DNA from: Actinomycetota bacterium
GTDB taxonomy: Bacteria > Actinomycetota > UBA4738 > HRBIN12
DNA: 64,000 bases
NCBI GenBank assembly: GCA_035762085.1
Contig: DASTPT010000094.1
Coordinates: forward strand, 6,101-70,100
Direction of reading: 5' to 3'
Below, piece by piece: positions 9,144-52,480 of the stretch. The number at the start of each line of letters is the position of its first letter. The first letter of the stretch is position 1. The translations under genes were made by a program, and so were the position numbers. The notes below the pieces were generated by a model, which was not told the origin of the DNA, searched no databases, and saw only the letters and a program-made list of their open reading frames with translations.

Positions 9144-9177
9144 CGCCGAGCCGGAGGGCGGCGTTCCTCGAGCGGGC

Positions 9178-37259: not shown

Positions 37260-38879
37260 CTACTTCCTCTTCGGCAGGGCCTTGTCCTTCACGGCCATGC
37301 GGAACGCCTGCCAGCCGGGGATGCCGTTCACGCCGCCGCCTCCGTGCGTGGCGCACGAGCCGTGGTACAGCCCCCTGATCGGGGTGCGGAAGTCCGCGTA
37401 TCCGGGCGCCGGACGCATGTGGAACAGCTGGTCCACCGCGAGCTCGCCGTGGAAGATGTTCCCGCCGATCAGGCCGAGCTCCTGCTCCATCTCGTACGGC
37501 CCGATGATCTGCCGGTCGATGACGGCCGACTTGAAGTTCGGCGCGAGGGTGTTGTACTCCTCGATCGCGCGGTCGGCGTACGCCTCGAGCTCCTCGGTGT
37601 GCGGCTCGGCGCTCCACTCGTGCGGGCACCACTGGCTGTACATCGAGAAGATGTGGATCCCCTCGGGACACAGCTTCTTGTCGAGCGTCGTCGGGATGAC
37701 GCCGTCGACGAAGGGCCGCGTCGCCGCCTTCTTCTCCATGTGCGCGTCCTGGAACGCGCGCTCCGCGTAGTCCGTCGAGAAACACAGCTCGACCGACCCG
37801 GTGTGGTGGTCCTGCATCTCCTTGCCCGGATCGGCCGTGAAGTCCGGCAGCTCCGAGAGCGCGACGTTGATCTTCACGACGCCGGAGCGGCTCCGCCAGC
37901 GCTCGATGTCCCAGACGAAGTCGGCCGGCAGGTCGTACCGGTCGATGAGGTCGAGGAACGCGGTCCTCGGGTGGATCGCCGAAACGCCGATCGGCGCGCG
38001 CAGCTCCTCACCGTTCTCGAGCGCCACGCCGACGAACCGTCCGTTGCGCACGAGGATCTTCGAGACCTTCGCGTTCGTGCGGATCTCGCAGCCGAACGAC
38101 TCGGCCGATCGGCGGATCGAGTCCGACACGGCGCCCATGCCGCCCTGCTGGAACCCCCACGACCCGAGGTGGCCGTCGCCGACGTCGCCGATCGAGTGGT
38201 GGAGCATCACGTAGGCGGTGCCCGCCTCGTCCGGCCCGGCCCACGTCCCGATCACGCCGTTCACCGCGAGCATGCCCTTGATCGGGTCGGACTCGAACCA
38301 CTCGTCGAGCAGGTCGGTGACGCTCATCGTGAACAGCTTCGTGACGCTGCCCACGCCCCGGACACCGAGCTTGCGCATCTTCCATGCCGTCTCGACGGTC
38401 GACAGCAGGTCGCCGAGCGCCATCGAGCCCATCTTCGGCGGCACCCGCAGCAGCAGCGGCCCGAGGACGTCGGCGACGCCCTTCAGCCACTCCTCCCACT
38501 TCGGGAGTATCTCGGCGTCCTTCTTCGAGAACTGCGCGATCGACTCGTAGGACTTCGCGGCGTCGTCCGCGTAGACCTTGATCGAGCGCCCGTCCGGGAA
38601 CGCCTGGTAGTACGGCCCGAACGGCGTGACGTCGTAGCCGAACCGTTTGAGCTGCAGCTCGTTGATGATCGTCGGCGGCATCAGCGACATCACGTACGAG
38701 TAGGTCGTGACCTGAATCTCGGGGTGGTCGGGGAACGGCGCGCTGGTGTCGGCCGCGCCGCCGGTCTTGTGACGCGCCTCGAGCACGACGGCCCGGGCGC
38801 CGGCCCTCGCGAAGTAGGCGCCCGCCGTGAGCCCGTTGTGCCCGCCGCCGATGATGATCGCGTCGTAGACGTTCGTCAT
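37260..38879 (-). CDS. FAD-dependent oxidoreductase of the phytoene-desaturase / amine-oxidase superfamily (CrtI-like)
   Basis: 539 aa. N-terminal Rossmann motif YDAIIIGGGHNGLTAGAYFARAG...VLE, with the size and layout of COG1233 flavoproteins. Confidence 0.8.
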   Translation of the reverse strand: MTNVYDAIIIGGGHNGLTAGAYFARAGARAVVLEARHKTGGAADTSAPFPDHPEIQVTTYSYVMSLMPPTIINELQLKRFGYDVTPFGPYYQAFPDGRSIKVYADDAAKSYESIAQFSKKDAEILPKWEEWLKGVADVLGPLLLRVPPKMGSMALGDLLSTVETAWKMRKLGVRGVGSVTKLFTMSVTDLLDEWFESDPIKGMLAVNGVIGTWAGPDEAGTAYVMLHHSIGDVGDGHLGSWGFQQGGMGAVSDSIRRSAESFGCEIRTNAKVSKILVRNGRFVGVALENGEELRAPIGVSAIHPRTAFLDLIDRYDLPADFVWDIERWRSRSGVVKINVALSELPDFTADPGKEMQDHHTGSVELCFSTDYAERAFQDAHMEKKAATRPFVDGVIPTTLDKKLCPEGIHIFSMYSQWCPHEWSAEPHTEELEAYADRAIEEYNTLAPNFKSAVIDRQIIGPYEMEQELGLIGGNIFHGELAVDQLFHMRPAPGYADFRTPIRGLYHGSCATHGGGGVNGIPGWQAFRMAVKDKALPKRK

Positions 38880-38964
38880 GCTCGGATCTCCTTCGGGCCG
38901 TCTGCCGCGCCATCATGTCCCGCGTTTGAACGACGGGTCAAGCCGACCGTGGCCGATGCGCCGG

Positions 38965-39012
38965 TTGACAACCCTGGTCCGCGGGCTAGCATGCGTTGAA
39001 CCTCGGTTCAAC
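38965..39012 (+). promoter_or_regulatory. sigma-70-like promoter (-35 TTGACA, 16-nt spacer, -10 TAGCAT) with a downstream perfect palindromic operator GTTGAAC-CTCG-GTTCAAC in front of the TetR gene
   Basis: Read directly: TTGACA at 38965-38970, TAGCAT at 38987-38992, 18-bp palindrome at 38995-39012. A second, imperfect copy (TTGAAC-GACG-GGTCAA) lies at 38926-38941. Confidence 0.5.
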
Positions 39013-39047
39013 CCGCCCGGCGGACCGAGTCGCGTTCAGGGGGACGG

Positions 39048-39677
39048 ATGAGCGGGACGACCCCGAAGAGCAAGGATCGGCACCAGGAGATCCTGGACGC
39101 CGCCGCGAGGGTGATCACCGACCGCGGCCTGGCCGAGACCCGGATCTCCGACATCGCCGAAGAGGCAGGGGTCTCTCCCGGGCTCATCCTCTACTACTTC
39201 GACTCGAAGGACCGGCTGCTGTCCGAGGCCCTCACGTACGCGAACGACCAGTTCTACCTGCGGATGTCGCGCGAGATCCGCCGGATCCCCTCGGCGCGGG
39301 ACCAGCTCGCTCGGCTCATCGACCTGTCCGTCCCGGGCCTGCTGCCCGAGTACGGCCGGCTCGACGAGTGGGCCCTGTGGATCGAGGTCTGGGTCCGCGC
39401 GCTCCGGGATCCCGAGATGGCGAAGGACCGCGAGTTCTTGGACCAGCGCTGGCGCGGTCAGATCGCCGACATCATCCGCGGCGGGCAGGCCTCCGCCGAG
39501 TTCTCCTCGGAGCAGACCCCCGAGGAACTGGCGCTGCGGCTCGCTTCCCTGATCGACGGCCTGGCGATCCAGGTGATCATGGAGGACTCGCAGGTCACCC
39601 CAGAGCACATGCGGGGCACCTGCATCGACGTCGCCGCCCGCGAGCTGGGGTTCGAGCGCGAGCCCGTCTCGACCTGA
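39048..39677 (+). CDS. TetR/AcrR family transcriptional regulator
   Basis: N-terminal TetR HTH (RQEILDAAARVITDRGLAETRISDIAEEAGVSPGLILYYF). Divergent from the flavoprotein-ACS operon. Confidence 0.9.
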   Translation: MSGTTPKSKDRHQEILDAAARVITDRGLAETRISDIAEEAGVSPGLILYYFDSKDRLLSEALTYANDQFYLRMSREIRRIPSARDQLARLIDLSVPGLLPEYGRLDEWALWIEVWVRALRDPEMAKDREFLDQRWRGQIADIIRGGQASAEFSSEQTPEELALRLASLIDGLAIQVIMEDSQVTPEHMRGTCIDVAARELGFEREPVST

Positions 39678-39683
39678 TCCGGC

Positions 39684-40130
39684 TCAGCGGGCCCCACCCA
39701 CGAACGCGCGCAGGCCCGGCAGGTGCTCCTCGTAGTGGTCGATCGTCTCCCAGACGAACTCCTGCTCGGCGGCGGCATCGACCTCGGGGAGCGCGGCCCA
39801 GGCGGCGAGCATCCGCTCGCGGGCCTCGTTCAGGCCACGCTCGACGTCCGCGAGGCTTATCCGTCCCGACTCCTCGAGCACCCGGGCGTTCTCGGCGTCC
39901 GTCGCCTCGTCGTCCTCGGGCGGCGGGACGTACGTCCCCGCCCGCATCGCTTCGAGCGTGCCCGCGAGATCGTCCCACCAGTGCGCGACGTGCCACAGCA
40001 CGTCCTTGACCGTCCACCCCTCCACGTTCACGCCCGGCGTCTCGCGACGGGCCGGCTCGATGGCGTCCACGGCCTCGCGGAACGCCGCCCACGCCGCCCG
40101 CTCCCGAGCGCCTAGCTCCTGCTCGTCCAT
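39684..40130 (-). CDS. DinB/ClbS-like four-helix-bundle family protein (DUF1706-like)
   Basis: 148 aa from the ATG at 40130 (MDEQELGARERAAWAAF...WTVKDVLWHVAHWWDD...ETIDHYEEH). The N-terminal 158 aa of the track ORF are an Arg-rich artefact. Confidence 0.5.
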   Translation of the reverse strand: MDEQELGARERAAWAAFREAVDAIEPARRETPGVNVEGWTVKDVLWHVAHWWDDLAGTLEAMRAGTYVPPPEDDEATDAENARVLEESGRISLADVERGLNEARERMLAAWAALPEVDAAAEQEFVWETIDHYEEHLPGLRAFVGGAR

Positions 40131-40141
40131 CTCCGACCTCC

Positions 40142-41320
40142 TCATCCCGCCAGCGTGCGGACCCCACGTTTCGCGAGCTGATCGGCGACGATGTTCCGTT
40201 GGATCTCGGAGGTCCCTTCCCAGATCCGGTCCACGCGGAGCTCGCGATAGAACCGCTCGGCCACGTTCTCGCGCATGTAGCCGCGGCCCCCGAACACCTG
40301 GACCGCGCGGTCGGCGACACGGTTCGCCATCTCGCTCGCGTACAGCTTCGCCATCGAGCACTGCGCGTGCTGGACCTTCACGTCGACGCCTCGGTCGATG
40401 TTCTTCGCGAGCTCGTACGTCATCAGACGCGCCGCCCACAGCTCCGTGAGCGAGTCCGCGAGCATGTGCCCGATCGCCTGGAACCGGATGATCGGCTCCT
40501 CGAACTGCACCCGGTCCCTCGCGAACGCGGTCGCCTCCTCGATCAGGCGCTCGGCGGCACCGCAGCAACGGGCCGCGATCATCAGCCGCTCGTACCGGAA
40601 CCACGCGTACGTGAAGTCCAGGCCGTCGCCCTCCTCGCCGACCATGCTCGTGGCGGGGACCCGCACGTCGTCGAAGCGGACGATCGCGTGGCTGTCGGCG
40701 TACGTGTGCGAGTACGCGGGCTCGCGCACCAGGTGCACACCCGGCGTGTCCTTGTCCACGAAGAACATCGCGTGCTCGCCCGCGTGGGGCCCGCCGTCGA
40801 TCTTGCCCTGGAAGAAGAGGTAGTCGGCCGTGTTGTACGAGGTCACGTGCATCTTCGTGCCGTTCAGCACGTACGCGTCGCCGTCGCGTCGGGCGGTGGC
40901 CTGGATCGCGTCGACGTCCGAGCCCGCGCCGGCCTCAGTGATCGCGTAGCACTCCTGCCGCTCGCCGCGGATCGTCGGCACGATCCAGCGCTCGAGCTGC
41001 TCGGGCGTGACGACCTCGGGCGCCCAGGCCGGCGGCGTGTGGACGCACCAGCCGAGCGCGTTCGTCACCCGCCCGATCTGCTCGGAGACCAGGACCTGCT
41101 GGAACATCGTGAAGCCGCCGCCGCCCAGCTCCCTCGGCATGTTCATCGCGAACAGGCCGAGGTCGATCGCCGAGCGGTGGTGCCGCTCGCGCGCCTCGTC
41201 GGGGATCCGGCCGCCGTGCTCCTCGGCGTGGTTCTCCCAGGGGATCAGCTCCTCGTCGACGAACCGCCGAGCGGTCTCCTGGATCCTCCGATCCTCCTCC
41301 GTCATCGGGTACGTGCTCAT
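40142..41320 (-). CDS. acyl-CoA dehydrogenase family protein (paralog 2)
   Basis: CYAITEAGAGSD, LNGTKMHVTS, and C-terminal YRELRVDRIWEGTSEIQR. Confidence 0.9.
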   Translation of the reverse strand: MSTYPMTEEDRRIQETARRFVDEELIPWENHAEEHGGRIPDEARERHHRSAIDLGLFAMNMPRELGGGGFTMFQQVLVSEQIGRVTNALGWCVHTPPAWAPEVVTPEQLERWIVPTIRGERQECYAITEAGAGSDVDAIQATARRDGDAYVLNGTKMHVTSYNTADYLFFQGKIDGGPHAGEHAMFFVDKDTPGVHLVREPAYSHTYADSHAIVRFDDVRVPATSMVGEEGDGLDFTYAWFRYERLMIAARCCGAAERLIEEATAFARDRVQFEEPIIRFQAIGHMLADSLTELWAARLMTYELAKNIDRGVDVKVQHAQCSMAKLYASEMANRVADRAVQVFGGRGYMRENVAERFYRELRVDRIWEGTSEIQRNIVADQLAKRGVRTLAG

Positions 41321-41352
41321 CCGGCCACCTCCGGCGCGAGCATACGCCGGAG

Positions 41353-41368
41353 CTGAACGACGGTTCAG
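41353..41368. promoter_or_regulatory. perfect palindrome CTGAAC-GACG-GTTCAG upstream of the acyl-CoA dehydrogenase gene (operator-like)
   Basis: Read directly, in the 55-nt gap between the cysK-like stop and the ACAD start. It belongs to the TGAAC-N4-GTTCA motif family seen at 38926, 38995, 46361 and 50944. Confidence 0.45.
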
Positions 41369-41375
41369 ACGCGAC

Positions 41376-42440
41376 TCACGCCACCTCGGCCCGAGCCGCC
41401 GGCCCGAGGATCTCCAGACGCGCGGCGTGCCGGTCGAGCATCGCGACGGTGTGCTCGTCCAGCTCGTGTTCGCGGTCCGGGGCCTCGGCCTCCGCGACCG
41501 GGCCCCCGAACAGCGCCGAGGAGAAGTAGCGCTGCCCCGAGTCCGCGATGACCGTCGCGATCCGCCGGATCTCGGGGTGGGCCCGCGCGATCTCGAGCGC
41601 CGCCACGACGTTGCAGCCGGAGGAGGTGCCGCAGAAGATCCCCTCGTCGTGGGCGAGGCGACGGGCCATCGCCTGGGCGTCGGCGGTGGTGACGGTCACG
41701 ATGCCATCGATCACGTCGAGGTCGAGGTTCCGCGGCACGATGCCGTCGCCGATCCCGGCGATCCCGTGCGGCCCCCACCGGCGCGCCGAGATCAGCGCGC
41801 ACTCCGCCGGCTCCGCCGCGTACACGCGGGCCCGCGCTTCGCGCTCCTTCAGGAAGCGCCCGACGCCGCTGATCCAGCCGCCCGTTCCCTGCGCCGCCAC
41901 GACGGCGTCGACGCGGCCGTCCATCTGCGCCCAGATCTCCGGCGCCGTGGTCGTGCGGTGCGCCTCGACGTTGTCGGGGTTCTCGAACTCGGCCGGCACG
42001 AAGAAGCGACCGGGGTGCGATGCGCGCATGTCCTCCATCAGCGCGAGCGCGACATCGACATCCGACTCGCCTCCGGGGGTGAGGATCAGCTCGGCACCGT
42101 ACGCCCGGATCAGCTTCTTGCGCTCCTCGCCCATGCCCTCGGGCATGATCACGGTGCAGCGGTACCCCTTGATCGCGGCGACGGCGGCGCACGCGATCCC
42201 GGCGTTGCCGGTCGTGCACTCGAGGATCGTCATCCCCGGTCGGAGGTCGCCGCGCCCCTCGGCGCGCTCGATCATGAAGCGGTAGATCCGGTCCTTCACG
42301 GAGCCGGTCGGGCCGTAGTACTCCAACTTGGCGTAGAGCTCGTGGCCGTCCGGCTCGATCCGCCGGAGCCGGACGAGCGGCGTGTGGCCGACGGCGTCGA
42401 GCATCGAATCGAGCGGACGGGCGTATGCGTCCCAGTCCAT
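41376..42440 (-). CDS. cysteine synthase / cystathionine-beta-synthase family PLP enzyme (CysK-like)
   Basis: 354 aa from MDWDAYARP. PLP Lys in SVKDR, TGNAGIA, GTGGWISG glycine loop. The track ORF 41376..43415 is chimeric. Confidence 0.85.
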   Translation of the reverse strand: MDWDAYARPLDSMLDAVGHTPLVRLRRIEPDGHELYAKLEYYGPTGSVKDRIYRFMIERAEGRGDLRPGMTILECTTGNAGIACAAVAAIKGYRCTVIMPEGMGEERKKLIRAYGAELILTPGGESDVDVALALMEDMRASHPGRFFVPAEFENPDNVEAHRTTTAPEIWAQMDGRVDAVVAAQGTGGWISGVGRFLKEREARARVYAAEPAECALISARRWGPHGIAGIGDGIVPRNLDLDVIDGIVTVTTADAQAMARRLAHDEGIFCGTSSGCNVVAALEIARAHPEIRRIATVIADSGQRYFSSALFGGPVAEAEAPDREHELDEHTVAMLDRHAARLEILGPAARAEVA

Positions 42441-42544
42441 AGGGTCCTCCTCGCGAGGGCGACGTCTCGGCCCGTCCGTGCGGACGGGGGATCGCCGCCG
42501 TGCACGTGGTTCGTGCCCCGGCGGACGCGCCTCCAAACCCGCCG

Positions 42545-43387
42545 TCAGCCCAGCCCGAGCAACAGCAGTCCGCCGATCACCAGCGCGATCCCGGCGTACT
42601 GGGTCGGCCCGGGACGCTCGCCGAACAGCGCGACGCCACCGACGATCGGGAACAGGACGAACGTGGCCGAGGCCGCCGTGACGATCGAGATGAGACCGAC
42701 CTCCGCGCCGAACGAGTACAGGGCCACGCCGACGATGTCGGCGAGGCCGGCGGCCGCGGCTACGCCGAGCCCCGTGGTGTCGGCTCCGCGGATCCGGGGC
42801 CGCCGCACGGCCGCGATCGCGAGCAGCATGAGCACCGAGAACGTTCGACCGAGCGCGGTCGCCGGCAGCCAGCCCACCACCTGGGCCTGCCGCCCGAGCG
42901 TGAAGGTCGCCAGCCCGAACAGGAGCATCGAGACGATCCCCACGGGGACGCCCGGGCCCGAGAAGCGCTCGCCGCTCGCCGCACGGAGATCGGTCGAGGC
43001 GACGACCACGCCGACGAGCGTCACGATCGCCCCGACGAGCACGGGCCCCGCCAGGCTCTCGTCGAGCAGGACCACGGCCAGGACGACGGGCGGCACGGCG
43101 TACGCCGCCACGATCGGCGAGACGATCGCGACCGGCCCGAGCTCGAGCGCTCGGTAGTGCGCAAGGTACGCCACGCCGACGATCGCTCCGTTCGCCGCCA
43201 GGATGAACACGTTCCCCGCGTCGCCGGTCCACTCGGGCCGGATCGCGAGGACCAGGAGCGCGATCGCAACCAGGCTGGTGACCTGGGCGACCACCGTCGC
43301 GGCCATGCTGCCGATCCGCCGCCCGCTCAGCGCGGCCCCGAGATCGGCCAACCCCCAGCCGATCGCGGCCCCGAGGCCGTAGATCAC
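42545..43387 (-). CDS. EamA/DMT family transporter
   Basis: 280 aa, 10 TM helices, two EamA repeats. Confidence 0.8.
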   Translation of the reverse strand: MIYGLGAAIGWGLADLGAALSGRRIGSMAATVVAQVTSLVAIALLVLAIRPEWTGDAGNVFILAANGAIVGVAYLAHYRALELGPVAIVSPIVAAYAVPPVVLAVVLLDESLAGPVLVGAIVTLVGVVVASTDLRAASGERFSGPGVPVGIVSMLLFGLATFTLGRQAQVVGWLPATALGRTFSVLMLLAIAAVRRPRIRGADTTGLGVAAAAGLADIVGVALYSFGAEVGLISIVTAASATFVLFPIVGGVALFGERPGPTQYAGIALVIGGLLLLGLG

Positions 43388-45486
43388 GCCGAGGCCCGGG
43401 CCTCGGCGAGGGCATCGACCGCGACCGCCCCGCGCTCCGCGACGAGGAGCGGGTTCGCCTCGAGCGAGGTCAGCCGGTCGCGGAGGTCATGCGCTGCGCG
43501 CGCGATGCCCTCGACCACCCTCGCCACGGCGCGGACGTCGTGCTCGTCGGCGTCGAGGCCGCACCGCTCGGCCTGCGACCGTACGTACGCGAGCGCCTGC
43601 GCCGGCGTGAGGGGCGCGGCGACGAACGTGGCCGCGCCGGCCTCGGCGAGCGCGCCACCTGGCCGGATCGTGATCGAGGCGCCGAAGTGCTCGTCGACCA
43701 CGGCGCCGACGAGCACCTCGTGTCCGTGCGCCATCCGCTGGACGAGCACCTTCGGCCGGCGGGCGCCGGCGCGCCTGGCTGCCTGCAGGACCTCGGCGGC
43801 GGCGACCTCGACGTCGGTCGGGTTCGCCAGCCCCAGCCGCACCCCGCCGAGCTTCGCCTTGTGCGGGATCTCGGCCGCGAGCGCCTTCACGGCCACCGGG
43901 AACCCGAGGCGCCTCGCGGCCGCCGCCGCGGTCTCGGGCGAGGCCACCGTCGCCTCCTTCGGCCGGGCGACGCCGTAGAGCTGGAGCAGCTTCGCACCCC
44001 GCTCCTCGTCGAGCGGGCCGGACCGTCCGCGGAGCAGGCGCAGCGCGGCCGCGCGGCTCGGGTGCGGGCCCAGCTCGGGGATCGAGCGTCGGCGGGCGGT
44101 CTGCAGCTCGACGAGCGCGCGGATCGCGCCGGTCGCGGCGTGGTGGCCCTGCAGGAACGGCAGCCGCTCGGCGCGGGTCCACGTCTTCGCGCGCGGGATG
44201 TACGCGAGCGGGCTCATCGCGACCGAGGCGAACGCCACGCCGGTCTGGCGCTGGAGCGCACGGACCCGCTCCAGCAGGTGCTCTGCCCAGACGACCTCGT
44301 TCTCCAGACGCGGCGGGAACGCGTCGAACGCCACGAACCCCACCGACGGGTCGGTCGCGAGCGCCTCGAGCGCGCCCTCGAACATGTCGACCTCGACCGC
44401 GGCCTGGCCGGTGACGTCGAGCGGGTTGTTCTGTGAGGCGAAGTGAGGCAGCGCCCGCCGCAGCCGCCCCTTCGTCGATGCCGCGAACTCGGGAAGCTCG
44501 AGCCCCCGCGCGCCGGCCGCCTCGGCGAACAGCGTGCATGCGCCGCCGGACTGCAGCGCCGCCGCCACGCCGGTCGAGCGCAGACGGCGGTGGTGCGACA
44601 GGAGCACGGCGGCCTCGAACATCGTCACCGGGTCCTCGACCAGGATCGCGCCGTGGCCGCGGAGCCAGGCGTCGCGGAGCGCCGTGTTCCCGGCGAGCGC
44701 CCCCGTGTGCGCGACGATCGAGCGCCGCGCCGCCTCGCTGCGACCCTCGGGCGCGCACACGAGGATCGGCTTGCGGGCTCTCCGCAGGGCTTCGAGGCCG
44801 CGCTCGATGCCCTCGACGTCGCGCATCGTCTCGATGTACGTGGTCACGAGCTTCGTGTGCGGGTCCTCGGCGGCCCACGCGAACATGTCGCCGAGACCGA
44901 TCACCGCCTCGTTCCCGACCCCGAGGATGATCCGAAGCCCGACGCCCCGATCCGAGGCCATCTGGTTCATCGTCCACGCCACCGTGCCCGACTGACTGAT
45001 CACGCTGATGCCGCCGGGGACGGGCTCGGGCGGCGGGGTGGTGCCGTACGGCGCCACCTTCTCGACGTAGTTGACGTAGCCCTCGACGTTCGGCCCGAGC
45101 ACGGGCAGGCGGTGCTCGAGCGCCTTGGCCCGCAGCTCGTCCTGGAGCGCACGGCCCTCCTCGCCCGCCTCGGCGAAGCCGGAGGAGACCACCATGACGC
45201 CCCGCACGCCGGCCGCCGCGACCTCGTCGAGCATCCGCACGACGACGCGCGCCGGCACGACGAAGATCAGCAGATCGACGCCCCTCGGCAGCTCGGCGAC
45301 CGTGGACAGGCACGCCCGCCCCCATACCTGCTCGTACTTCGGGTTGACGGGATACAGCTCGCCCGTGAACCCGACGTGGCGGAGCGAGCGCTCGATCTCG
45401 GGGGCCCACGAGTCGGGCGACTCGGAGGCGCCGACGATGGCGATCGAGCGCGGGGCGACGACCGGCCGCAGGTCGAACCGCTTCAC
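43384..45486 (-). CDS. acetyl-CoA synthetase (ADP-forming) / NDP-forming acyl-CoA synthetase, fused alpha-beta (paralog 2)
   Basis: About 700 aa from the GTG (VKRFDLRPVVAPRSIAIVGASESP), which abuts the enoyl-CoA hydratase stop codon (45483-45485). Domains are CoA-binding, ligase-CoA and ATP-grasp. The track ORF to 46065 is extended. Confidence 0.8.
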   Translation of the reverse strand: MKRFDLRPVVAPRSIAIVGASESPDSWAPEIERSLRHVGFTGELYPVNPKYEQVWGRACLSTVAELPRGVDLLIFVVPARVVVRMLDEVAAAGVRGVMVVSSGFAEAGEEGRALQDELRAKALEHRLPVLGPNVEGYVNYVEKVAPYGTTPPPEPVPGGISVISQSGTVAWTMNQMASDRGVGLRIILGVGNEAVIGLGDMFAWAAEDPHTKLVTTYIETMRDVEGIERGLEALRRARKPILVCAPEGRSEAARRSIVAHTGALAGNTALRDAWLRGHGAILVEDPVTMFEAAVLLSHHRRLRSTGVAAALQSGGACTLFAEAAGARGLELPEFAASTKGRLRRALPHFASQNNPLDVTGQAAVEVDMFEGALEALATDPSVGFVAFDAFPPRLENEVVWAEHLLERVRALQRQTGVAFASVAMSPLAYIPRAKTWTRAERLPFLQGHHAATGAIRALVELQTARRRSIPELGPHPSRAAALRLLRGRSGPLDEERGAKLLQLYGVARPKEATVASPETAAAAARRLGFPVAVKALAAEIPHKAKLGGVRLGLANPTDVEVAAAEVLQAARRAGARRPKVLVQRMAHGHEVLVGAVVDEHFGASITIRPGGALAEAGAATFVAAPLTPAQALAYVRSQAERCGLDADEHDVRAVARVVEGIARAAHDLRDRLTSLEANPLLVAERGAVAVDALAEARASA

Positions 45487-46322
45487 GCCGGATCGTCGCC
45501 GTGCTGCGCGTCGCGCCACGCGATCGCGGCCTTCAGCCCCTGCTCCTGGGTGATCCGGCGGAACTCCGCGCGAGCCGGCAGGTTCGCGGTCTCGATCATC
45601 GTGTCGATCTCGGTGTTCGCCTCGAGCGCCTCCCGGAGTCCCGCGACCTCCCAGACCTGGTTGACGGCGCGCTTCGTCATCTGCACGACGTACGGCTCGT
45701 TCCGGGCGATCTCCTGCGCGAGCTCCAGGCTCGTCTCGTCCAGTCGATCCCTCGGCACGACGCGGTTCACCATGCCGATCCGCGCGGCCTCGTTCGCGGG
45801 TACGCGGTCCCGCCCCGTGTACAGCAGCTCCTTCGCCGCGCGGACCCCCACCACCCACGGCAGGAACATCGAGACGACGCCCGAGCCGAACCGGATGTCG
45901 ACGTAGCCGAAGACCGCGTCGTCCGCCGCGACCGCCAGGTCGCACGCGAGCATGAGGTCCACGCCGCCGCCAAGGCAGTAGGAGTGCACGCTCGCGATCA
46001 CGGGCTTCGGGTGGTCGACGATCGTGAGCATCTCTTCGGTCGAGCGCTTGAGGTCGGCGCGCCACGCGTTCTCGTCCAGGACGCCGGCCTCGGTGTCCTC
46101 GTTCATGTCGTAGCCGGAGCAGAAGGCGCGACCGGCGCCGCGGAGCACGACCACCGAGACGCTGTCGGCCGCGGCCGCCCCGTCGAGCTCGCGCATCAGG
46201 GCCTCGAGCAGCTCGTGGTTCAGGGCGTTCAGCGCCCGGCCGCGGTTCATCGTGAGCCGTCGGACGGGGCCGAGGTCCTCGACGAGCAGGACGGGCTCGG
46301 AGGCGTCGTCGGTCACGGTCAT
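45483..46322 (-). CDS. enoyl-CoA hydratase/isomerase (crotonase family)
   Basis: Crotonase oxyanion-hole motifs (LRGAGRAFCSGYD, CLGGGVDLML). The start is taken at MTVTDD (46322). Confidence 0.85.
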   Translation of the reverse strand: MTVTDDASEPVLLVEDLGPVRRLTMNRGRALNALNHELLEALMRELDGAAAADSVSVVVLRGAGRAFCSGYDMNEDTEAGVLDENAWRADLKRSTEEMLTIVDHPKPVIASVHSYCLGGGVDLMLACDLAVAADDAVFGYVDIRFGSGVVSMFLPWVVGVRAAKELLYTGRDRVPANEAARIGMVNRVVPRDRLDETSLELAQEIARNEPYVVQMTKRAVNQVWEVAGLREALEANTEIDTMIETANLPARAEFRRITQEQGLKAAIAWRDAQHGDDPA

Positions 46323-46502
46323 CCCTCCTCGGTCGGGCTGGGCCGCATCATACCCGTGGCTTGAACGACGCTTCAGGCCCCCCACCCGGCCACGGCGTGG
46401 ACGGCGCGACCGGACACGCCTTGGGTTGCGCCTGCCCGTGCTGAGTGCTATTCAACCTCTTCGTACGACCGTTCAAACGACGGCGGACCAAGGAGGGGAA
46501 GG

Positions 46503-47846
46503 ATGCCAGAGCCGCGCGAGCACCTCTTGAGGCGGCGGGGCCCGACCAGCGAGCTCAGCCGGCGGCGGTTCCTGCGAGCATCGGCGAGCACGGCGATCGC
46601 GCTGCCGAGCCTGTCCGCGGTCCTGGCCGCGTGCAGCAAGCCCGGGACCGAGGCCCCCGAGGGCGCCACGGCGCCGGCCGGGACGACCGGACCGTACCCG
46701 CTCGCCCGCACCGACAACCCGGTGACCCTGCCGATCCACGACGACATCCAGCCGATCGAGGACAACCTCCCGGTCGAGACGGGCGCGACGCTGAAGATCT
46801 ACAACTGGGCCGACTACATGTGGAAGAAGGTCATCAACGACTTCTGCGAGGAGTTCAACTGCGACTATGAGTGGACGACCTTCAACAACATGTCGGAGGC
46901 GATCCAGAAGATGTCCACGGGACAGGTCGCCGACGTCTTCTTCCCGACCGTCGATCAGCTGGGCAAGCTGACCTACGGCAAGCTCCTCCAGCCCCTGAAC
47001 CTCTCGTACATCCCGAACCTCGCGGCGAACATGTGGCCGCAGTACCAGAACCCCTTCTACGATCAGGAGGCGCGGTACACGGTCCCGTACACCACGTACA
47101 CGACCGGCGTGGCCTATCGGCGCGACGTCATCCCCGACGAGGAGGCCGAGGCCCAGGGCTACGACCTGATCTGGAACCCTCAGTACTCGGGCAAGGTCGG
47201 CATCTACGACGACGCACGCGAGTCGCTCGCGATGGCGATGCGCCGGGCGGGCGTGGACGACGTGAACACGACCGACGAGGCGACCATCCAGGCCGCGAAG
47301 GACGACCTGGTCGAGCTGATCGACCTCGTGAACGTCCGAACGACGATCAACGGCGTCTACGTGAAGCTGCCCGACGGCGTGTACGACGTCCACCAGTCCT
47401 GGTCGGGCGACATCATCGGCGCGCAGTGGTACCTGAGCGATCTGAACACGCCGGGCGAGACGGACATCCTCGGCTACTGGTACCCGCCGGACAACGTGGG
47501 GGTCGTCGGGAACGACGTGATCTCGATCCCGGCGAACGCCGAGCACCCGGTCCTCGCGCACGCGTTCCTGAACTTCATGATGGACGAGACCCACGCGTTC
47601 GATAACTTCACGTGGAACGGGTACCAGCCGCCGCTCACGTCCATGAACCCGGAGAAGTTGATCGAGGCGGAGATGGGCGCGTACGCGCCGAACAAGGGCC
47701 CGGGGACCGTCCCGCCGTCCGTGCCGCGCGCCGTCGTGACCGAGGAGATGTTCGACAAGGGCATGTGGCTGCTCGAGCTCGCGCCCGAGGACGAGCTGAA
47801 GTGGCAGACGGCGTGGGAGGAGTTCCAGGCCGGAGCGGGGGCGTAG
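46503..47846 (+). CDS. ABC transporter substrate-binding protein, PotD/PotF (polyamine) family, Tat/lipoprotein signal
   Basis: RRRFLRASASTAIALPSLSAVLAAC signal/lipobox, and the PotD-fold blocks LKIYNWADYM and SWSGD. Confidence 0.85.
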   Translation: MPEPREHLLRRRGPTSELSRRRFLRASASTAIALPSLSAVLAACSKPGTEAPEGATAPAGTTGPYPLARTDNPVTLPIHDDIQPIEDNLPVETGATLKIYNWADYMWKKVINDFCEEFNCDYEWTTFNNMSEAIQKMSTGQVADVFFPTVDQLGKLTYGKLLQPLNLSYIPNLAANMWPQYQNPFYDQEARYTVPYTTYTTGVAYRRDVIPDEEAEAQGYDLIWNPQYSGKVGIYDDARESLAMAMRRAGVDDVNTTDEATIQAAKDDLVELIDLVNVRTTINGVYVKLPDGVYDVHQSWSGDIIGAQWYLSDLNTPGETDILGYWYPPDNVGVVGNDVISIPANAEHPVLAHAFLNFMMDETHAFDNFTWNGYQPPLTSMNPEKLIEAEMGAYAPNKGPGTVPPSVPRAVVTEEMFDKGMWLLELAPEDELKWQTAWEEFQAGAGA

Positions 47847-47853
47847 CGACGGC

Positions 47854-48819
47854 GTGAGCGAGCCCGAGGAGGGAACCACCACCCCGTCCCGGCGCGAGGC
47901 GCGACGGGTCCGGCGCGCCTCCGCCAAGCAGCGGGGCGCCTGGTATCCCCGGTGGTTCTGGCCGTCCTTCGCGACCCCCGCGATCGTCTGGCAGATCCTG
48001 TTCTTCGCCGCGTCCTTCTACGTGATCCTGGCGATCGCGTTCGGGACCCAGGACTTCTTCCGGAACCCCCTTCCGGTGTTCCAGCCGTGGTGGTGGGACT
48101 TCTCCACGTTCACGGACCAGCTGGGGAGGATCTTCGGCGGCGTCTACCAGGACGTGTACCTGCGGACGTTCGGATACGTCCTGACCGCGAGCCTCACGTG
48201 CCTGCTGATCGGCTACCCGATCGCCTACTTCGTGGCCCGGTACGGTGGCCGCCGTAAGGGCCTGTTCCTCGCGCTGCTCATCATGCCGTTCTGGATCAGC
48301 TACCTGATGCGGATGTACGCCTGGCAGTCGCTGCTCGAGCGCGACGGGTACGTGAACGACGTACTGACGTTCCTCCAGGTCTTCCAGGAGCCGTTCGGAT
48401 GGCTCGAGGGACACGGCATCACGGTCGTGATCGGGCTCGTCTACGGCTACATGCCGTACCTGATCCTGCCGCTGTACGGGCAGCTCGACCGGATCGACCA
48501 GAGCCAGCTCGAGGCCGGCCGCGACCTGGGCGCGAGTCCGGCGCGGACCTTCTGGCGCGTCACGCTCCCGCTGTCGAAGCCGGGCATCCTGGCCGGGCTG
48601 ATCATCATCACGCTGCCGATGTTCGGGGACTACTACACGAACGCCCTGCTCTCCCAGTCCCCGAGGACGACGATGATCGGCAACCTGATCGACCTGACGT
48701 ACGTCACACCGGGCCTCGCCGCGCAGGGAGCCTCGCTGGTGCTGACGATCGTCGTGATCCTCATCGTCCCGATGCTCTGGTACCTGCGCTACACGGCTCG
48801 AGCCGCGGAGGCGAAGTGA
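47854..48819 (+). CDS. ABC transporter permease (PotB-like)
   Basis: 6 TM helices and the EAA-like motif of binding-protein-dependent permeases (EAGRDLGASPARTFWRVTLP). Confidence 0.85.
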   Translation: MSEPEEGTTTPSRREARRVRRASAKQRGAWYPRWFWPSFATPAIVWQILFFAASFYVILAIAFGTQDFFRNPLPVFQPWWWDFSTFTDQLGRIFGGVYQDVYLRTFGYVLTASLTCLLIGYPIAYFVARYGGRRKGLFLALLIMPFWISYLMRMYAWQSLLERDGYVNDVLTFLQVFQEPFGWLEGHGITVVIGLVYGYMPYLILPLYGQLDRIDQSQLEAGRDLGASPARTFWRVTLPLSKPGILAGLIIITLPMFGDYYTNALLSQSPRTTMIGNLIDLTYVTPGLAAQGASLVLTIVVILIVPMLWYLRYTARAAEAK

Positions 48820-49742
48820 AGACCGCGACGCGCGAGCCGGTGGCGACCACGACGCCGACGACCCCGCGGTCCCACATCCCCTGGTTCGGCAACCCATGGC
48901 GCAAGCCGCGGATCCTCGAGGCGATCACGTGGGTCTACCTGGCGTGGTCCGTCCTGCCGGTCACGATCGCGGTCCTCTTCTCGTTCAACCAGGGGCGCTC
49001 GAGGAGCTCCTGGCAGGGGTTCTCACTCACGTGGTGGTGGGAGGATCCCTACGAGTCGCTGTTCAGGAACCCGCTCCTGCGACCCGCCATCTTCCAGAGC
49101 TTCCGCCTGGCGATCCTCACGACCCTGATCGCGGTGCCGATCGGGACGGCGTTCGCGATCGGACTCGACCGGTGGCGAGGCCGGCCGGCGACCGCGGCGA
49201 ACTTCAGCGTCCTCATGGCGTTCGTCGTGCCCGAGATCATCCTCGGGCTCGCGCTGTTCCTCTCGTTCGAGCACCTGCTGACCTTCATCCCCCTCGGGAC
49301 GGTCGCGCAGGTCATCGGGCTCGTCACGTGGCAGATCGCGTACGCCGTCATCATCGTTCGGGCGCGGTTATTGACCATCGGCCGGGAGTACGAGGAGGCG
49401 GCGATGGACCTCGGCGCGTCGCCGACGAAGTCGATCCGGCGCGTGCTCCTGCCGCTGCTCACCCCGGCGATGTTCGCCAGCGCGGCGATCGTCTTCGCGG
49501 ACTCGATCGACGACTTCGTCACCGTGCGATACCTCTCGGCGGCGTCGGATACCGAGCCGCTCTCGGTCAAGATCTACAACGCGGCGCGCGCGTCACCCAC
49601 GCCCGCGGTGAACGCGGCCGCGACGTTCATGTTGATCTCCACCTTCACGATCATCACGCTCGGCTTCATCGCGTACCGCGTCCTGACACGCGGCCAGCGC
49701 AGGGAGAGCGCGGTCAAGGAGTTCGTGTCGCTCGAGGTGTGA
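48816..49742 (+). CDS. ABC transporter permease (PotC-like)
   Basis: GTG start overlapping the PotB-like stop, and an EAA motif (EEAAMDLGASPTKSIRRVLLP). The track ORF from 48399 is chimeric. Confidence 0.85.
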   Translation: MKTATREPVATTTPTTPRSHIPWFGNPWRKPRILEAITWVYLAWSVLPVTIAVLFSFNQGRSRSSWQGFSLTWWWEDPYESLFRNPLLRPAIFQSFRLAILTTLIAVPIGTAFAIGLDRWRGRPATAANFSVLMAFVVPEIILGLALFLSFEHLLTFIPLGTVAQVIGLVTWQIAYAVIIVRARLLTIGREYEEAAMDLGASPTKSIRRVLLPLLTPAMFASAAIVFADSIDDFVTVRYLSAASDTEPLSVKIYNAARASPTPAVNAAATFMLISTFTIITLGFIAYRVLTRGQRRESAVKEFVSLEV

Positions 49743-49787
49743 TCCGCAGCGGCACCGCCGCGACCGAGCCGCGCCGCGGGCAGGTCG

Positions 49788-50915
49788 CTAGGTGGCGGCG
49801 AGCGGCTCCTCCATGGCGTGGAGCTCCTCGAGCGAGGCGGTCTCCATGAGCATGCGGAGCGCGTCGGCCGGCAGGTGCACCGTGATCGGCGTGCCCTGCT
49901 CGAACGGGACCCCGCTCCCCTCGTTCGGCATCCACGCCTGGAGGGTCTGGCCGGGCGGGAGGTGGACGATGATCTGGAGCGTCGAGCCCACGTAGACGAC
50001 GCGCTCGATCATCCCGGGGACGCGGTTCTCGCCCGTGGCGCCGTGGTCCTCGAGGCGGACGCGCTCGGGCCGGATCGTGACCTTGACGCTTCCGGTCGCG
50101 TCCGTGTCCCCCTTCGCGGCCACCAGCTCGAAATCGCCGATCCGCACCTTGCCTCGCCCGTCCTCGGTGCGACCGGCCGCGGCGGCGTCCATCAGGTTCG
50201 AGACGCCCAGGAAGTCGGCCACGTACGCCGTGGCCGGCTCCTCGTAGACCTCGCTCGGCGTGCCGACCTGCTCGACGCGGCCGTTACTCATCACGGCCAG
50301 CCGGTCGGACATCGTGAGCGCCTCCTCCTGGTCGTGCGTCACGTAGATGAACGTGATGCCGACCTCCTGTTGGAGGGACTTCAGCTCGATCTGCAGCGCC
50401 TTGCGCAGCTTGGCGTCCAGCGCGCCGAGCGGCTCGTCCAGGAGCAGTACGGCGGGGTTCAGGATCAAGGCTCGGGCGAGCGCCACCCGCTGCTGCTGCC
50501 CGCCCGAGAGCTGGGAGGGACGCCGTCGCTCGTACCCCTCCAGGCGGACCAGCGCCAGGGCGTCGGCGATCTTCTGCTTCGCCTCGGCCTTCGAGACCTC
50601 CTGGTAGCGGAGGCCGAACCCAACGTTGTCGGCCACCGACAGGTGCGGGAACAGCGCGTAGTTCTGGAAGACCGTGTTGACGTTGCGCTTGTGGGGCGGG
50701 GTGTGCGCCATGTCCACGCCATCGAGCAGGATCCGACCCTCGTCCGGCCGCTCGAACCCCGCGATGCACCGCAGGGTCGTGGTCTTCCCGCATCCCGAGG
50801 GCCCGAGCAGGGAGAAGAACTCGCCCGGGGGCATGTCCAGGTTGATCCCCGCGACCGCCGTGACGTCGGCGAAACGCTTCACCAGATCGACGAGGACGAC
50901 CTCTCCGCCAGCCAT
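49788..50915 (-). CDS. ABC transporter ATP-binding protein (PotA-like, with C-terminal TOBE/MOP domain)
   Basis: Walker [25 protein letters not shown], Walker [12 protein letters not shown], and a C-terminal regulatory beta-domain. The start is probably [11 protein letters not shown]. Confidence 0.9.
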
Positions 50916-50962
50916 GCAGGGCGCAGGATAGCGCACATCCTGCACGACCGTTCAAGGGCCGG

Positions 50963-52414
50963 CTATCCCTCCAGGGTCACGTGGACGTGCTTGGACTCGA
51001 GGTAGTCCTCGACGCCCTGCACCCCGAGCTCCCGGCCGATCCCCGAGCGCTTGTAGCCGCCCCACGGCGCCTCGACCGGCGCGGCCTGCGTGCCGTTGAT
51101 CCACACGGTGCCGACCCGCAGCGCGCGAGCGACCGTCAACGCCCTCGTGATGTCGTTCGTCCACACCGCCGCCGCCAGCCCGTACTCGTTGTCGTTCGAC
51201 ATCCGGACGACCTCCTCGACGTCCGAGAACGGGATCACGGTCATCACCGGGCCGAAGATCTCCTCGCGCGCGATCGTCGCGTCGTTCGTCGCGTCCGCGA
51301 AGATCGTCGGCGGCACCCAGTAGCCGTTCGCCAGGCGCGGGTCGGCGGGACGGTCGCCCTGCACCGCGAGCTTCGCCTCGTCCATGCCGATCTCGATGTA
51401 GCGCTCCACGCGGGTCCGCTGCTCCTTCGAGATCAGCGGCCCCATCGTGGTCTCCTCGTCGAACTGATCGCCAAGCTTCACGCTGTTCGTGCGCTCCACC
51501 ATCGCGGCGAGCGCGTCGTCGTAGATCGCCCGCTCGACGAAGACGCGCGTGCCGGCCGAGCAGTTCTCGCCCATGTTCCAGAAGACGCCGTTGCACGAGC
51601 CCTCGATCGCGGCCTCGAAGTCGGCGTCGGCGAACACGATGTTCGGCGACTTGCCGCCGAGCTCGAGCGTCACGCCCTTCAACGTGTCGGCGGCGTTCCG
51701 CATGATCAGCTGCCCGACCTCCTTCGAGCCCGTGAAGCCCACCTTGTCGACCTTCGGGCTCTCGACGAGCGGGGCGCCGGCCGTCTCGCCGAAACCGGTC
51801 ACCACGTTCAGGACGCCGGCGGGAAGACCGGCCTCCTCGAGGATCCTCGCGATCTCGAGCGAGGTGAGCGGCGTCTGCTCCGGCGGTTTGAGGACGAACG
51901 TGCACCCGGCGGCGATCGCCGGCGCCACCTTCTGCGCCGACATCATCATCGGGTAGTTCCACGGTGTGATGCCGGCCGCCACGCCCACCGGCTCCTTCAT
52001 CACGAACGACATCGCGTCCGGCCCGATCGGCAGGACGTCGCCGTGGATCTTCGTAGCCCAGCCGCCGAAGTACTCGAACATGTAGGCGACGTCGGCGATG
52101 TCGTCCCGCGCGTCGCCGATCGGCTTGCCGGCGTCGAGCGCCTCCAGCCGAGCTAGGCGCTCGAGGTCGCGATGCACGATCTGGGCCGCCCGGAGAAGGA
52201 TCCGGCCGCGCTCACGCTCCGACGTGCCCGGCCACCACGAGCCGCCGTCGAACGCGCGCCGGGCGGCGTCGATCGCCCGCTCGACATCCGCCCGCTTCGA
52301 GTCGGGGGCGGTGGCGATGACCTCCCCGGTGGCCGGATTGAACACATCCAGGCGGGCGCCGTCGTCGGCGTCCAGCCACCGGCCGTCGATGAAGTTCTGC
52401 AGCGCGTCCGCCAC
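50963..52414 (-). CDS. NAD(P)+-dependent aldehyde dehydrogenase
   Basis: 483 aa. Catalytic Cys in GENCSAGTR, Glu in TLELGGKSP, glycine motif GFTGS, GTG start. Confidence 0.9.
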   Translation of the reverse strand: MADALQNFIDGRWLDADDGARLDVFNPATGEVIATAPDSKRADVERAIDAARRAFDGGSWWPGTSERERGRILLRAAQIVHRDLERLARLEALDAGKPIGDARDDIADVAYMFEYFGGWATKIHGDVLPIGPDAMSFVMKEPVGVAAGITPWNYPMMMSAQKVAPAIAAGCTFVLKPPEQTPLTSLEIARILEEAGLPAGVLNVVTGFGETAGAPLVESPKVDKVGFTGSKEVGQLIMRNAADTLKGVTLELGGKSPNIVFADADFEAAIEGSCNGVFWNMGENCSAGTRVFVERAIYDDALAAMVERTNSVKLGDQFDEETTMGPLISKEQRTRVERYIEIGMDEAKLAVQGDRPADPRLANGYWVPPTIFADATNDATIAREEIFGPVMTVIPFSDVEEVVRMSNDNEYGLAAAVWTNDITRALTVARALRVGTVWINGTQAAPVEAPWGGYKRSGIGRELGVQGVEDYLESKHVHVTLEG

Positions 52415-52480
52415 GTTCTCCCCCTCCTCGGCTGACGTAGAGGGGGAGGGTACTACGAGCGACGCGGTGCCGTGGGGTCC

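Follow-up and report, generated by a model that had tools for sequence, protein, structure and literature searches.

The window analyzed here, a 64,000-nucleotide stretch of contig DASTPT010000094.1 from an Actinomycetota bacterium, contains a 17-kb cluster of catabolic and transport genes in which six copies of a 16-bp inverted repeat with the consensus YTGAAC-N4-GTTCAR fall on six predicted promoters. We consider it probable, at roughly 80%, that the TetR-family protein encoded within this cluster (209 aa; positions 39048-39677, plus strand) binds these copies and acts as the repressor of the whole set. The genes of the cluster encode, in map order, an ADP-forming acyl-CoA synthetase (ACS1), a CrtI/amine-oxidase-like flavoprotein (FADox), the TetR protein, a DinB/MDMPI_N-family protein, an acyl-CoA dehydrogenase (ACAD), a cysteine-synthase-like pyridoxal-phosphate (PLP) enzyme, an EamA protein, a second ADP-forming acyl-CoA synthetase (ACS2), an enoyl-CoA hydratase (ECH), the binding protein, two permeases and ATPase of a PotD/PotF-like transporter, and an aldehyde dehydrogenase (ALDH). 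Computed directly were the sites with their enrichment, the conservation that they show at specific positions and the way they overlap conserved promoter-like hexamers, and it is from the sequence that we infer TetR as the binding protein, repression, the transcription starts, the effector and the substrate. The result is a testable cis-regulatory map of six promoters, six operators, one repressor and one internal promoter, for a cluster that is common in uncultured Actinomycetota.

Probable operator copies in the window and in related genomes

Two of the six copies are perfect, namely O_T in front of tetR (38996-39011, TTGAAC-CTCG-GTTCAA, within an 18-bp palindrome at 38995-39012; matrix score 25.1) and O_A in front of ACAD (41353-41368, CTGAAC-GACG-GTTCAG; 24.9). 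O_F, beside FADox (38926-38941, TTGAAC-GACG-GGTCAA; 24.9), and O_E, upstream of ECH (46361-46376, TTGAAC-GACG-CTTCAG; 20.5), each carry a deviant half, and the series is completed by O_P upstream of the ATPase gene (50940-50955, CTGCAC-GACC-GTTCAA, which reads TTGAAC-GGTC-GTGCAG on the minus strand; 16.4) and by the weak O_S upstream of the binding-protein gene (46461-46476, TCGTAC-GACC-GTTCAA; 11.0). The inverted repeats quoted in an initial annotation of this DNA were all found in place, and its central claim, a palindromic operator shared by at least five promoters of one catabolic cluster, that of tetR among them, is strongly supported by position-specific conservation in more than 80 genomes and by overlap with predicted promoter elements. 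Its target list left out the FADox-ACS1 operon with O_F and the PLP enzyme. Of the two GTTCAA half-sites it had counted near 46451-46485, one is real and the other is ATTCAA, part of a -10 region; the copy it had placed at 50944-50957 before both the potA-like and the aldehyde-dehydrogenase genes does lie upstream of the ATPase gene but downstream of ALDH, which has no site here.

The exact sequence TGAACN4GTTCA occurs twice in the window against an expectation of 0.00, and six matches with at most one mismatch compare with 0.33 expected, a number that none of 100 shuffled windows reached. With up to two mismatches no enrichment was found in the window (9 observed versus 7.5 expected), so that the weak copies cannot be supported by window statistics alone; these are rescued by their conservation in related genomes. 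In a weight matrix 20 nt long, derived from 122 sites of other genomes with the two closest relatives left out, the T, G and A half-site positions are 99-100% conserved, the N4 spacer being variable and only weakly biased. Applied to the window, this matrix returns the six sites as its six top matches, all within four intergenic gaps that together make up about 450 nt of the 64 kb, in keeping with the promoter-proximal placement described in the initial annotation; the seventh-ranked match, at 36676, lies in a coding region and scores 8.8, and the remainder score 5.7 or less.

The comparative set consisted of 80 loci, one genome per species, all from metagenome-assembled genomes (MAGs) of uncultured Actinomycetota, with TetR orthologues 68-93% identical and a total length of 1.24 Mb. 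These loci share a conserved core of ACS1-FADox, tetR divergent from FADox, and then DinB-ACAD-PLP enzyme; synteny with tetR is seen for ACS1 and FADox in 60-71 of the 80 loci, for ACAD in 67 and for DinB in 43, and the part with ECH, ACS2, EamA and the transporter occurs in only a few. The motif is found 129 times (65 exact copies and 64 with one mismatch), the naive expectation for exact copies being about 0.16. None of the 129 lies inside confirmed coding sequence, where 40% of the 1.24 Mb was confirmed as coding by tblastn, and 123 are located upstream of a cluster gene at a distance of at most 200 nt; of the other six, two stand before ACAD genes broken into fragments in their assemblies.

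The copies recur gene by gene, as is apparent from their positions (the tallies for the tetR, FADox, ACAD and ECH sites include the window's own site). Within the last 125 nt upstream of tetR there are 55 matches, of which 54 are proximal, at about 70 nt from the start, and one (L001, 1515) is a distal site misassigned by the distance cut-off. A further 27 lie about 140 nt upstream of tetR, beside FADox, always with one deviant half, GGTCA or AGTCA, which was likewise seen in every locus inspected; 30 are directly upstream of ACAD, and 7 precede the PLP-enzyme gene where it is the first gene of the operon. Six matches are upstream of ECH, five of them with a deviant CTTCA half on the promoter-distal side and the sixth, in L024, with the other half deviating; the CTTCA deviation is kept in L001, L003, L004, L042 and L161-L166. 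Deviant halves are thus conserved site by site, as GGTCA at FADox, CTTCA at ECH and ATGCA at the ATPase gene. The weak O_S is conserved as YGTAC-N4-GYTCA, with varying spacers, in L001, L003, L004, L161, L163 and L166, and appears as a strong TGAACCCTGAGTCA in L024, and the O_P counterpart TTGAAC-N4-(C/G)ATGCA(A/G) precedes the ATPase gene in L161, L163, L166 and L167, contigs of close ATPase homologues.

The proximal tetR site is retained with at most one mismatch in 54 loci, and most of the rest carry a weaker copy at the same distance; even the most divergent loci keep both sites of the FADox-tetR gap at unchanged distances, though with some drift. An alignment of 69 distinct whole FADox-tetR gaps, assembled with no motif-based selection, has as its only conserved islands the two -35/-10 pairs, the half-sites of the two operators and one further element, a pattern that is the classical footprint expected of protein-binding sites in freely drifting DNA. 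The centres of O_F and O_T are 68-71 bp apart in nearly all of the set formed by the window and L001-L080.

The protein most readily connected with these sites is the TetR regulator itself. It matches Pfam TetR_N over residues 15-60 (E 3.9e-16), the N-terminal helix-turn-helix, and TetR_C_6 over residues 84-200 (E 8.5e-22), an all-helical C-terminal domain for ligand binding and dimerisation; crystal structures of the TetR family (4kwa, 4jnn, 4ich, 4nel) are matched over the full length at E values of about 1e-28, the nearest solved structures being uncharacterised structural-genomics entries. The same 209-aa sequence occurs, without a substitution, as an annotated MAG protein (P0121), its close homologues are all unnamed environmental sequences, and more than 1,200 relatives at E 1e-20 or better are present in public data. 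No other regulator occurs in the conserved core of the 80 loci, its helix-turn-helix is invariant across all 80 orthologues, and the sites have, computationally, the form of TetR-family operators, inverted repeats of some 14-18 bp over target promoters with a copy in the promoter of the regulator's own gene. In L164/165 the ECH and ALDH sites are present with no TetR gene within 10 kb, which fits a factor acting in trans.

The association extends to a distant clade (L081, L091-L093, L095, L097), where FADox, tetR and the transporter are arranged in the same synteny, TetR is 36-40% and FADox 61-65% identical, and the recognition helix, GTSPALVIYYF, differs. The gaps matching those of the window contain palindromes of the form TGAMY-N4-RKTCA, that is, the same 5-N4-5 architecture with TGACT or TGAAY halves, alongside simple TGACT-N4-AGTCA sites. 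These palindromes often consist of two registers overlapping by 4 bp, TTGACTGAAYRTTCAGTCTA, which could reflect the binding of two dimers. We considered TTGACTGAAYRTTCAGTCTA as a different motif and rejected this, as it reads as two overlapping registers of the same architecture; the shared architecture therefore supports an operator-type co-occurrence with the TetR-FADox pair and not a strict covariation. Among loci with TetR 36-47% identical, sites of these kinds were located at L081 2544, 10549, 10694 and 12160; L083 3582; L091 3225; L092 2611; L093 5158 and 12863; L095 5138; and L097 895, 4536 and 7827.

Promoter architecture and the proposed mode of repression

A promoter scan over 14.6 kb returned only two sigma-70-like matches, and these are the divergent tetR and FADox promoters that carry O_T and O_F within the 168-nt gap between 38879 and 39048. 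The predicted tetR promoter (38965-38992, plus strand) combines TTGACA (38965-38970), N16 and TAGCAT (38987-38992), with 10 of 12 consensus matches and with both hexamers conserved in the 69 gaps, thereby bearing out the promoter proposed in the initial annotation; O_T begins 4 nt past this -10 hexamer, spans the expected transcription start and is kept in orthologous loci, as the suggested operator in the regulator's own promoter would be. The predicted FADox-ACS1 promoter (38912-38941, minus strand) consists of TTGACC (38941-38936), N18 and CATGAT (38917-38912), the -10 columns (AT..T) being conserved in the 69 gaps. Its -35 hexamer is the GGTCAA half of O_F read on the minus strand, which explains why this deviant half stays conserved.

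The same use of a half-site as the -35 element can be read at three further minus-strand promoters. O_A lies in the 55-nt gap between the ACAD start and the stop codon of the PLP-enzyme gene (41376-41378), and thereby marks a putative internal promoter for ACAD-DinB (41339-41368), in which the operator half CTGAAC serves as -35 and is followed by N18, TATGCT (41344-41339), GGAGGTGG and the ATG at 41320; the full layout is CTGAAC-cgtc-GTTCAG-N8-TATGCT-N18-ATG, and TATGCT and GGAGGTG recur 7-9 nt past the site in 30 ACAD-upstream loci, the window included. The putative ECH operon promoter (46347-46376) has the O_E half CTGAAG at -35, then N18, TATGAT (46352-46347), GAGGAGGG and the ATG at 46322, in the layout CTGAAG-cgtc-GTTCAA-N8-TATGAT; boxes of the TATGCT/TATGAT type stand 7-10 nt past the sites in the 30 ACAD-upstream and 6 ECH-upstream sequences, the window being part of each count. 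The initial annotation had treated ACAD-DfsB (here ACAD-DinB) and ECH-ACS-EamA as two operons, and both do carry sites; all genes from 39684 to 46322, however, are on the minus strand, so that ECH, ACS2, EamA, the PLP enzyme, ACAD and DinB form one co-directional string within which O_A would mark an internal start.

At the ATPase gene, the predicted promoter (50913-50955, minus strand) is read as TTGAAC-ggtc-GTGCAG-N9-TATCCT-N9-ATG, with the TTGAAC half of O_P as -35, N19, TATCCT (50930-50925), 9 nt and the ATG at 50915; O_P itself is placed 7 nt past the ALDH stop codon. This ATG, and not the GTG at 50945 of the longest open reading frame, is most likely the start of the ATPase gene. It is preceded by no Shine-Dalgarno sequence, and the -10 (TATCCT/TATAGT) together with the 6-10 nt to the ATG is conserved in L161 and L163-L167; the short distance without a ribosome-binding site suggests that the ATPase mRNA is probably leaderless. 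The operator-to--10 stretch of the window (50931-50949) is 8-9 nt shorter than in L161, L163, L166 and L167 (about 9950-9995), which would put TTGAAC at -35 here and the other half there.

The two plus-strand promoters follow another plan. The putative promoter of the binding-protein operon (46426-46454), a sequence reading, has TTGCGC, N17 and (TGc)TATTCA, and its block GGGTTGCGC...GAGTGCTATTCAA is kept in L001, L003 and L004; O_S begins 6 nt past the putative -10, a layout that resembles that of tetR.

Taken as a mechanism, a TetR dimer would sit on the 16-bp inverted repeat YTGAAC-N4-GTTCAR. At the four minus-strand promoters (FADox-ACS1, ECH-ACS2-EamA-PLP, ACAD-DinB and ATPase), where one half-site is the -35 and the remainder fills the spacer, it would exclude RNA polymerase; at the two plus-strand promoters, those of tetR and of the operon for the binding protein and permeases, a dimer on the site, which begins 4-6 nt past the -10, would cover the transcription start, and occupancy of O_T would lead to negative autoregulation of tetR. 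Since such a dimer would obstruct the -35 and spacer at some promoters and the start site at others, all six are most likely repressed by steric hindrance. Uptake and catabolism would be induced together once a small molecule, probably the substrate brought in by the transporter or an acyl-CoA formed along the pathway, had released the repressor. An autoregulated TetR repressor that occludes promoters is a textbook mechanism and an ordinary kind of bacterial switch, and the repressor-operator pair could be put to use as a compact inducible control in hosts of high G+C content.

The additional conserved element of the FADox-tetR gap, with the consensus YTGnnC-N3-GTTCAR, is part of the tetR leader, where it stands just before the ribosome-binding site; in roughly 70 of L001-L080 its distance from tetR is 15-30 nt. 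It resembles the operator but has a degenerate inner left half and a 3-nt spacer, and its GTTCA is at least 90% conserved across the 69 gaps, which equals or exceeds the conservation of the main operator; the window's copy, CCGAGT-CGC-GTTCAG (39025-39039, plus strand), is weak. The element might be bound with low affinity or cooperatively, or it might work as RNA by pairing with the transcribed operator.

Upstream of ALDH and of the small ABM-domain gene, no operator was found in the window, where the best matrix score is -2.1. Just after the ALDH -10 there is a site in L163 (7271, weak), L164/165 (8472, strong) and L166 (8439, strong), whereas the window (52415-52480), L161 and L162 retain the -10 (GTAGTACCCT) without the site. 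ALDH is therefore probably not a direct target in this genome, and its membership in the regulon appears to vary between genomes.

Alternative explanations and known systems

Several observations weigh against the proposed TetR regulon. Every promoter assignment is a match to a consensus. O_S (46461) is inseparable from chance by window statistics and leans on conservation in few loci. For O_P, the relatives obtained from a metagenome scan with the ATPase were no more than 73% identical, and none has a site directly upstream of the ATPase gene. The leader element with its 3-nt spacer is not explained by simple dimer binding. The helix-turn-helix, TRISDIAExaGVSPGLILYYFxSKDRLL, is invariant in all 80 orthologues, and this appears to leave no covariation of protein and site to read within the clade. 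Finally, the core of the motif, GAAC-N4-GTTC, is identical to that of the Gram-positive LexA box.

The last point bears on whether these are genuine operators of a factor encoded elsewhere, of the LexA or Rex type, with TetR controlling something else, which we regard as unlikely. The LexA SOS (Cheo) box of Gram-positive bacteria is CGAAC-N4-GTTCG, with an invariant GAAC core and a position upstream of DNA-repair genes, and the Rex operator is TTGTGAAC-N2-GTTCACAA; both share the GAAC...GTTC dyad core, and LexA also the 4-nt spacer. Such a reading would accommodate the sites that remain in L164/165 away from any TetR gene, and it draws on the fact that the tie between protein and DNA is made here at the level of sequence. 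The invariant bases, however, are TGA/TCA (99-100%), with an outer T in 99% of the 122 sites where the LexA box has C, and the tolerated variants TGAAT, TGACC and AGTCA disrupt the very GAAC core that LexA requires. No perfect Cheo box was found in the window, and the Rex N2 spacing and outer TTG/CAA flanks are absent. Having compared the motif with the Cheo box on these grounds (the outer T, the GAAC-breaking variants, the lack of a perfect box in the window and the catabolic targets), we rejected that identity; the targets are catabolic and transport genes and not SOS or redox genes. That the motif recurs in the tetR promoter across the comparative loci, and follows the TetR-FADox pair into the distant clade, points to TetR, the sole regulator of the core.

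Two readings dispense with a DNA-binding regulator altogether. In one, the repeats would act as RNA, as small hairpins in 5' leaders or between genes that affect stability, termination or processing; the two perfect copies do fold as hairpins of 6-7 bp (-9.3 and -6.2 kcal/mol, z -3.7 and -2.0), and O_A stands 7 nt past a stop codon. We judge this highly improbable because three of the six copies fold no better than shuffled sequences (z +0.55 to +0.78) and because the conserved deviant halves GGTCA, CTTCA and ATGCA abolish pairing and are nevertheless maintained; moreover, no compensatory changes were seen, no T-tract follows the sites, and four sites are upstream of the predicted -10 and hence would be untranscribed from those promoters. 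In the other, the similarity would be a by-product of promoter sequence without any dedicated repressor, given that TTGAAC resembles the -35 consensus TTGACA and that a half-site coincides with the -35 position at four promoters. A -35 box, however, needs no inverted partner exactly 4 nt away, and such a partner is conserved at every site; the tetR and binding-protein sites are downstream of the -10, with TTGACA and TTGCGC as separate -35 elements; and exact dyads are expected zero times by chance. We find this explanation harder still to credit.

With repression by TetR as the preferred reading, the system may be set beside known ones. KstR and KstR2 of Mycobacterium and Rhodococcus are TetR repressors of cholesterol catabolism whose regulons were delimited chiefly by a palindrome conserved across many promoters. 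The likeness lies in a self-regulating TetR protein that would control catabolic operons (ACAD, ECH, CoA ligases, transport) through a short promoter-overlapping palindrome, in a regulon recognisable by comparative genomics. The KstR motif, TnnAACnnGTTnnA, is 14 bp long and not 16 bp as here; KstR2 matches the present TetR at the N-terminus only (E 1.7e-6), the proteins being unrelated beyond the family helix-turn-helix; and the present regulon is local, confined to 17 kb.

BetI, the choline-responsive repressor of the bet genes in E. coli, shares TetR_C_6, provides the best NCBIfam match and likewise has a divergent autoregulated promoter; a betaine-aldehyde-dehydrogenase-like ALDH is also nearby (584 bits, below the cut-off of 668.6). 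The scores, however, fall well short of the cut-offs (83.1 versus 201.3 bits for TIGR03384, 72.7 versus 118 for NF001978), identity to E. coli BetI is 25%, the window has neither a GMC choline dehydrogenase (betA) nor a BCCT transporter (betT), and ALDH here is without an operator. BetI binds a palindrome of the E. coli betI-betT gap. In E. coli K-12 this gap (L169 780-805) contains ATTGGAC|GTTCAAT, with a TTGAAC-like half-site and no spacer; its half-sites abut, whereas here they are 4 bp apart in every site. We therefore rejected the identification of TetR with BetI on the scores, the identity, the lack of betA and betT and the spaced half-sites; the resemblance of ATTGGAC|GTTCAAT is a lead and not an argument for membership. 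A full-text literature search for TGAAC/GTTCA together with TetR or operator gave essentially primer noise, and a search for the BetI operator returned nothing usable.

FadR of Bacillus and Thermus, PaaR, PsrA and AcuR are TetR repressors whose usual inducer is an acyl-CoA intermediate, and their targets, as here, include ACAD, ECH and CoA-ligase genes. Matches to FadR and AcuR are confined to the helix-turn-helix region (FadR 3whb, E 1.6e-10, residues 9-92; AcuR, 25 bits), and the operators differ. By this analogy an acyl-CoA intermediate appears the most plausible class of effector, and in function the system would resemble local versions of the KstR, FadR or PaaR regulons.

Gene map, candidate pathway and variation among relatives

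Given the G+C content of the window (71.6%), genes were called by frame analysis of third-position G+C together with Pfam and NCBIfam. On the minus side of the tetR promoter lie ACS1 (35135-37249) and FADox (37260-38879), both on the minus strand and assigned by Pfam and NCBIfam; tetR itself, a presumed repressor gene, was assigned by TetR_N and a BetI-type TetR_C_6. The minus-strand string that follows consists of DinB/MDMPI_N (39684-40145) and ACAD (40142-41320), both identified by Pfam, and of four genes supported by both Pfam and the frame analysis: the PLP enzyme (41376-42440; NCBIfam cysKM, 349.5 bits), EamA (42545-43387), ACS2 (43384-45486) and ECH (45483-46322). A gap of 180 nt separates ECH from the plus-strand gene of the PotD/PotF-family binding protein (46503-47846; PDB PotD/PotF relatives at E 1e-20 to 1e-24), which is followed by the two permeases (47854-48819 and about 48816-49742, plus strand), all three read from Pfam and translation. 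The gene of the PotA-like ABC transporter ATPase (375 aa; 49788-50915, minus strand; Pfam ABC_tran and TOBE_2; a 100% match to the annotated MAG protein P0001) stands apart from the genes of the binding protein and permeases, runs convergently to them, and has an operator of its own; 47 nt lie between it and ALDH (50963-52414, minus strand), after which comes the small ABM-domain gene, also on the minus strand.

ACS1 and ACS2 are paralogues of about 31% identity, each in a different operator-controlled operon, and their best NCBIfam matches, far under cut-off, are archaeal acetate-, 3-hydroxypropionate- and 4-hydroxybutyrate-CoA ligases. FADox is a remote relative of CrtI/CrtO in NCBIfam and PDB, and ACAD is of a generic short- or medium-chain type. 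The binding protein scores far below the equivalog cut-offs (72 bits versus 582 for PotD, 56 versus 636 for PotF), so that the polyamine-type transporter proposed in the initial annotation appears PotD/PotF-like at the family level, its polyamine substrate being unproven. A search for the substrate through NCBIfam and PDB singled out no candidate, all enzyme matches being far under the equivalog cut-offs. Taken together, the genes suggest an amine or thiol-bearing short acid that is broken down as a CoA thioester, with candidate routes of the 3-hydroxypropionate or acrylate, methylthiopropionate and gamma-butyrobetaine types among which nothing decides.

As the shared operator joins genes whose joint function is unexplained, it marks out which genes belong to one pathway and, through the ligands of the repressor, opens a way to the substrate. 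More tentatively, and we regard this fuller picture as doubtful, the regulon might mark an uncharacterised CoA-dependent route, widespread in uncultured Actinomycetota, for a transported amine or organosulfur compound, which would pass from the PotD-family importer to the CrtI-like flavoprotein, the ADP-forming CoA synthetases, and ACAD and ECH, with inclusion of the cysteine-synthase-like enzyme and a DinB-type thiol enzyme. The sensor would then belong to a BetI-related TetR lineage that keeps a BetI-type TTGAAC half-site with a 4-bp spacer, uses the half-site as the -35 of its targets and has a second register with a 3-nt spacer in its own leader.

Gene content near the operators varies among relatives. 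L002 (3283-3364) and L161 (18363-18414) lack the PLP-enzyme gene between EamA and ACAD yet keep the ACAD operator. In L004/L162 (contig_10712, 594,863 bp) the ACAD, ACS2, permease and binding-protein genes are fragmented, frameshift errors being a likelier cause than true pseudogenes. L163 has an MFS gene between ALDH and the ATPase gene (8742-9962), L166 (14369-15625) has an extra DAO/amine oxidase between the binding-protein gene and ECH, and in L164 (16084-17766) a GMC oxidoreductase, choline-dehydrogenase-like, stands beside EamA.

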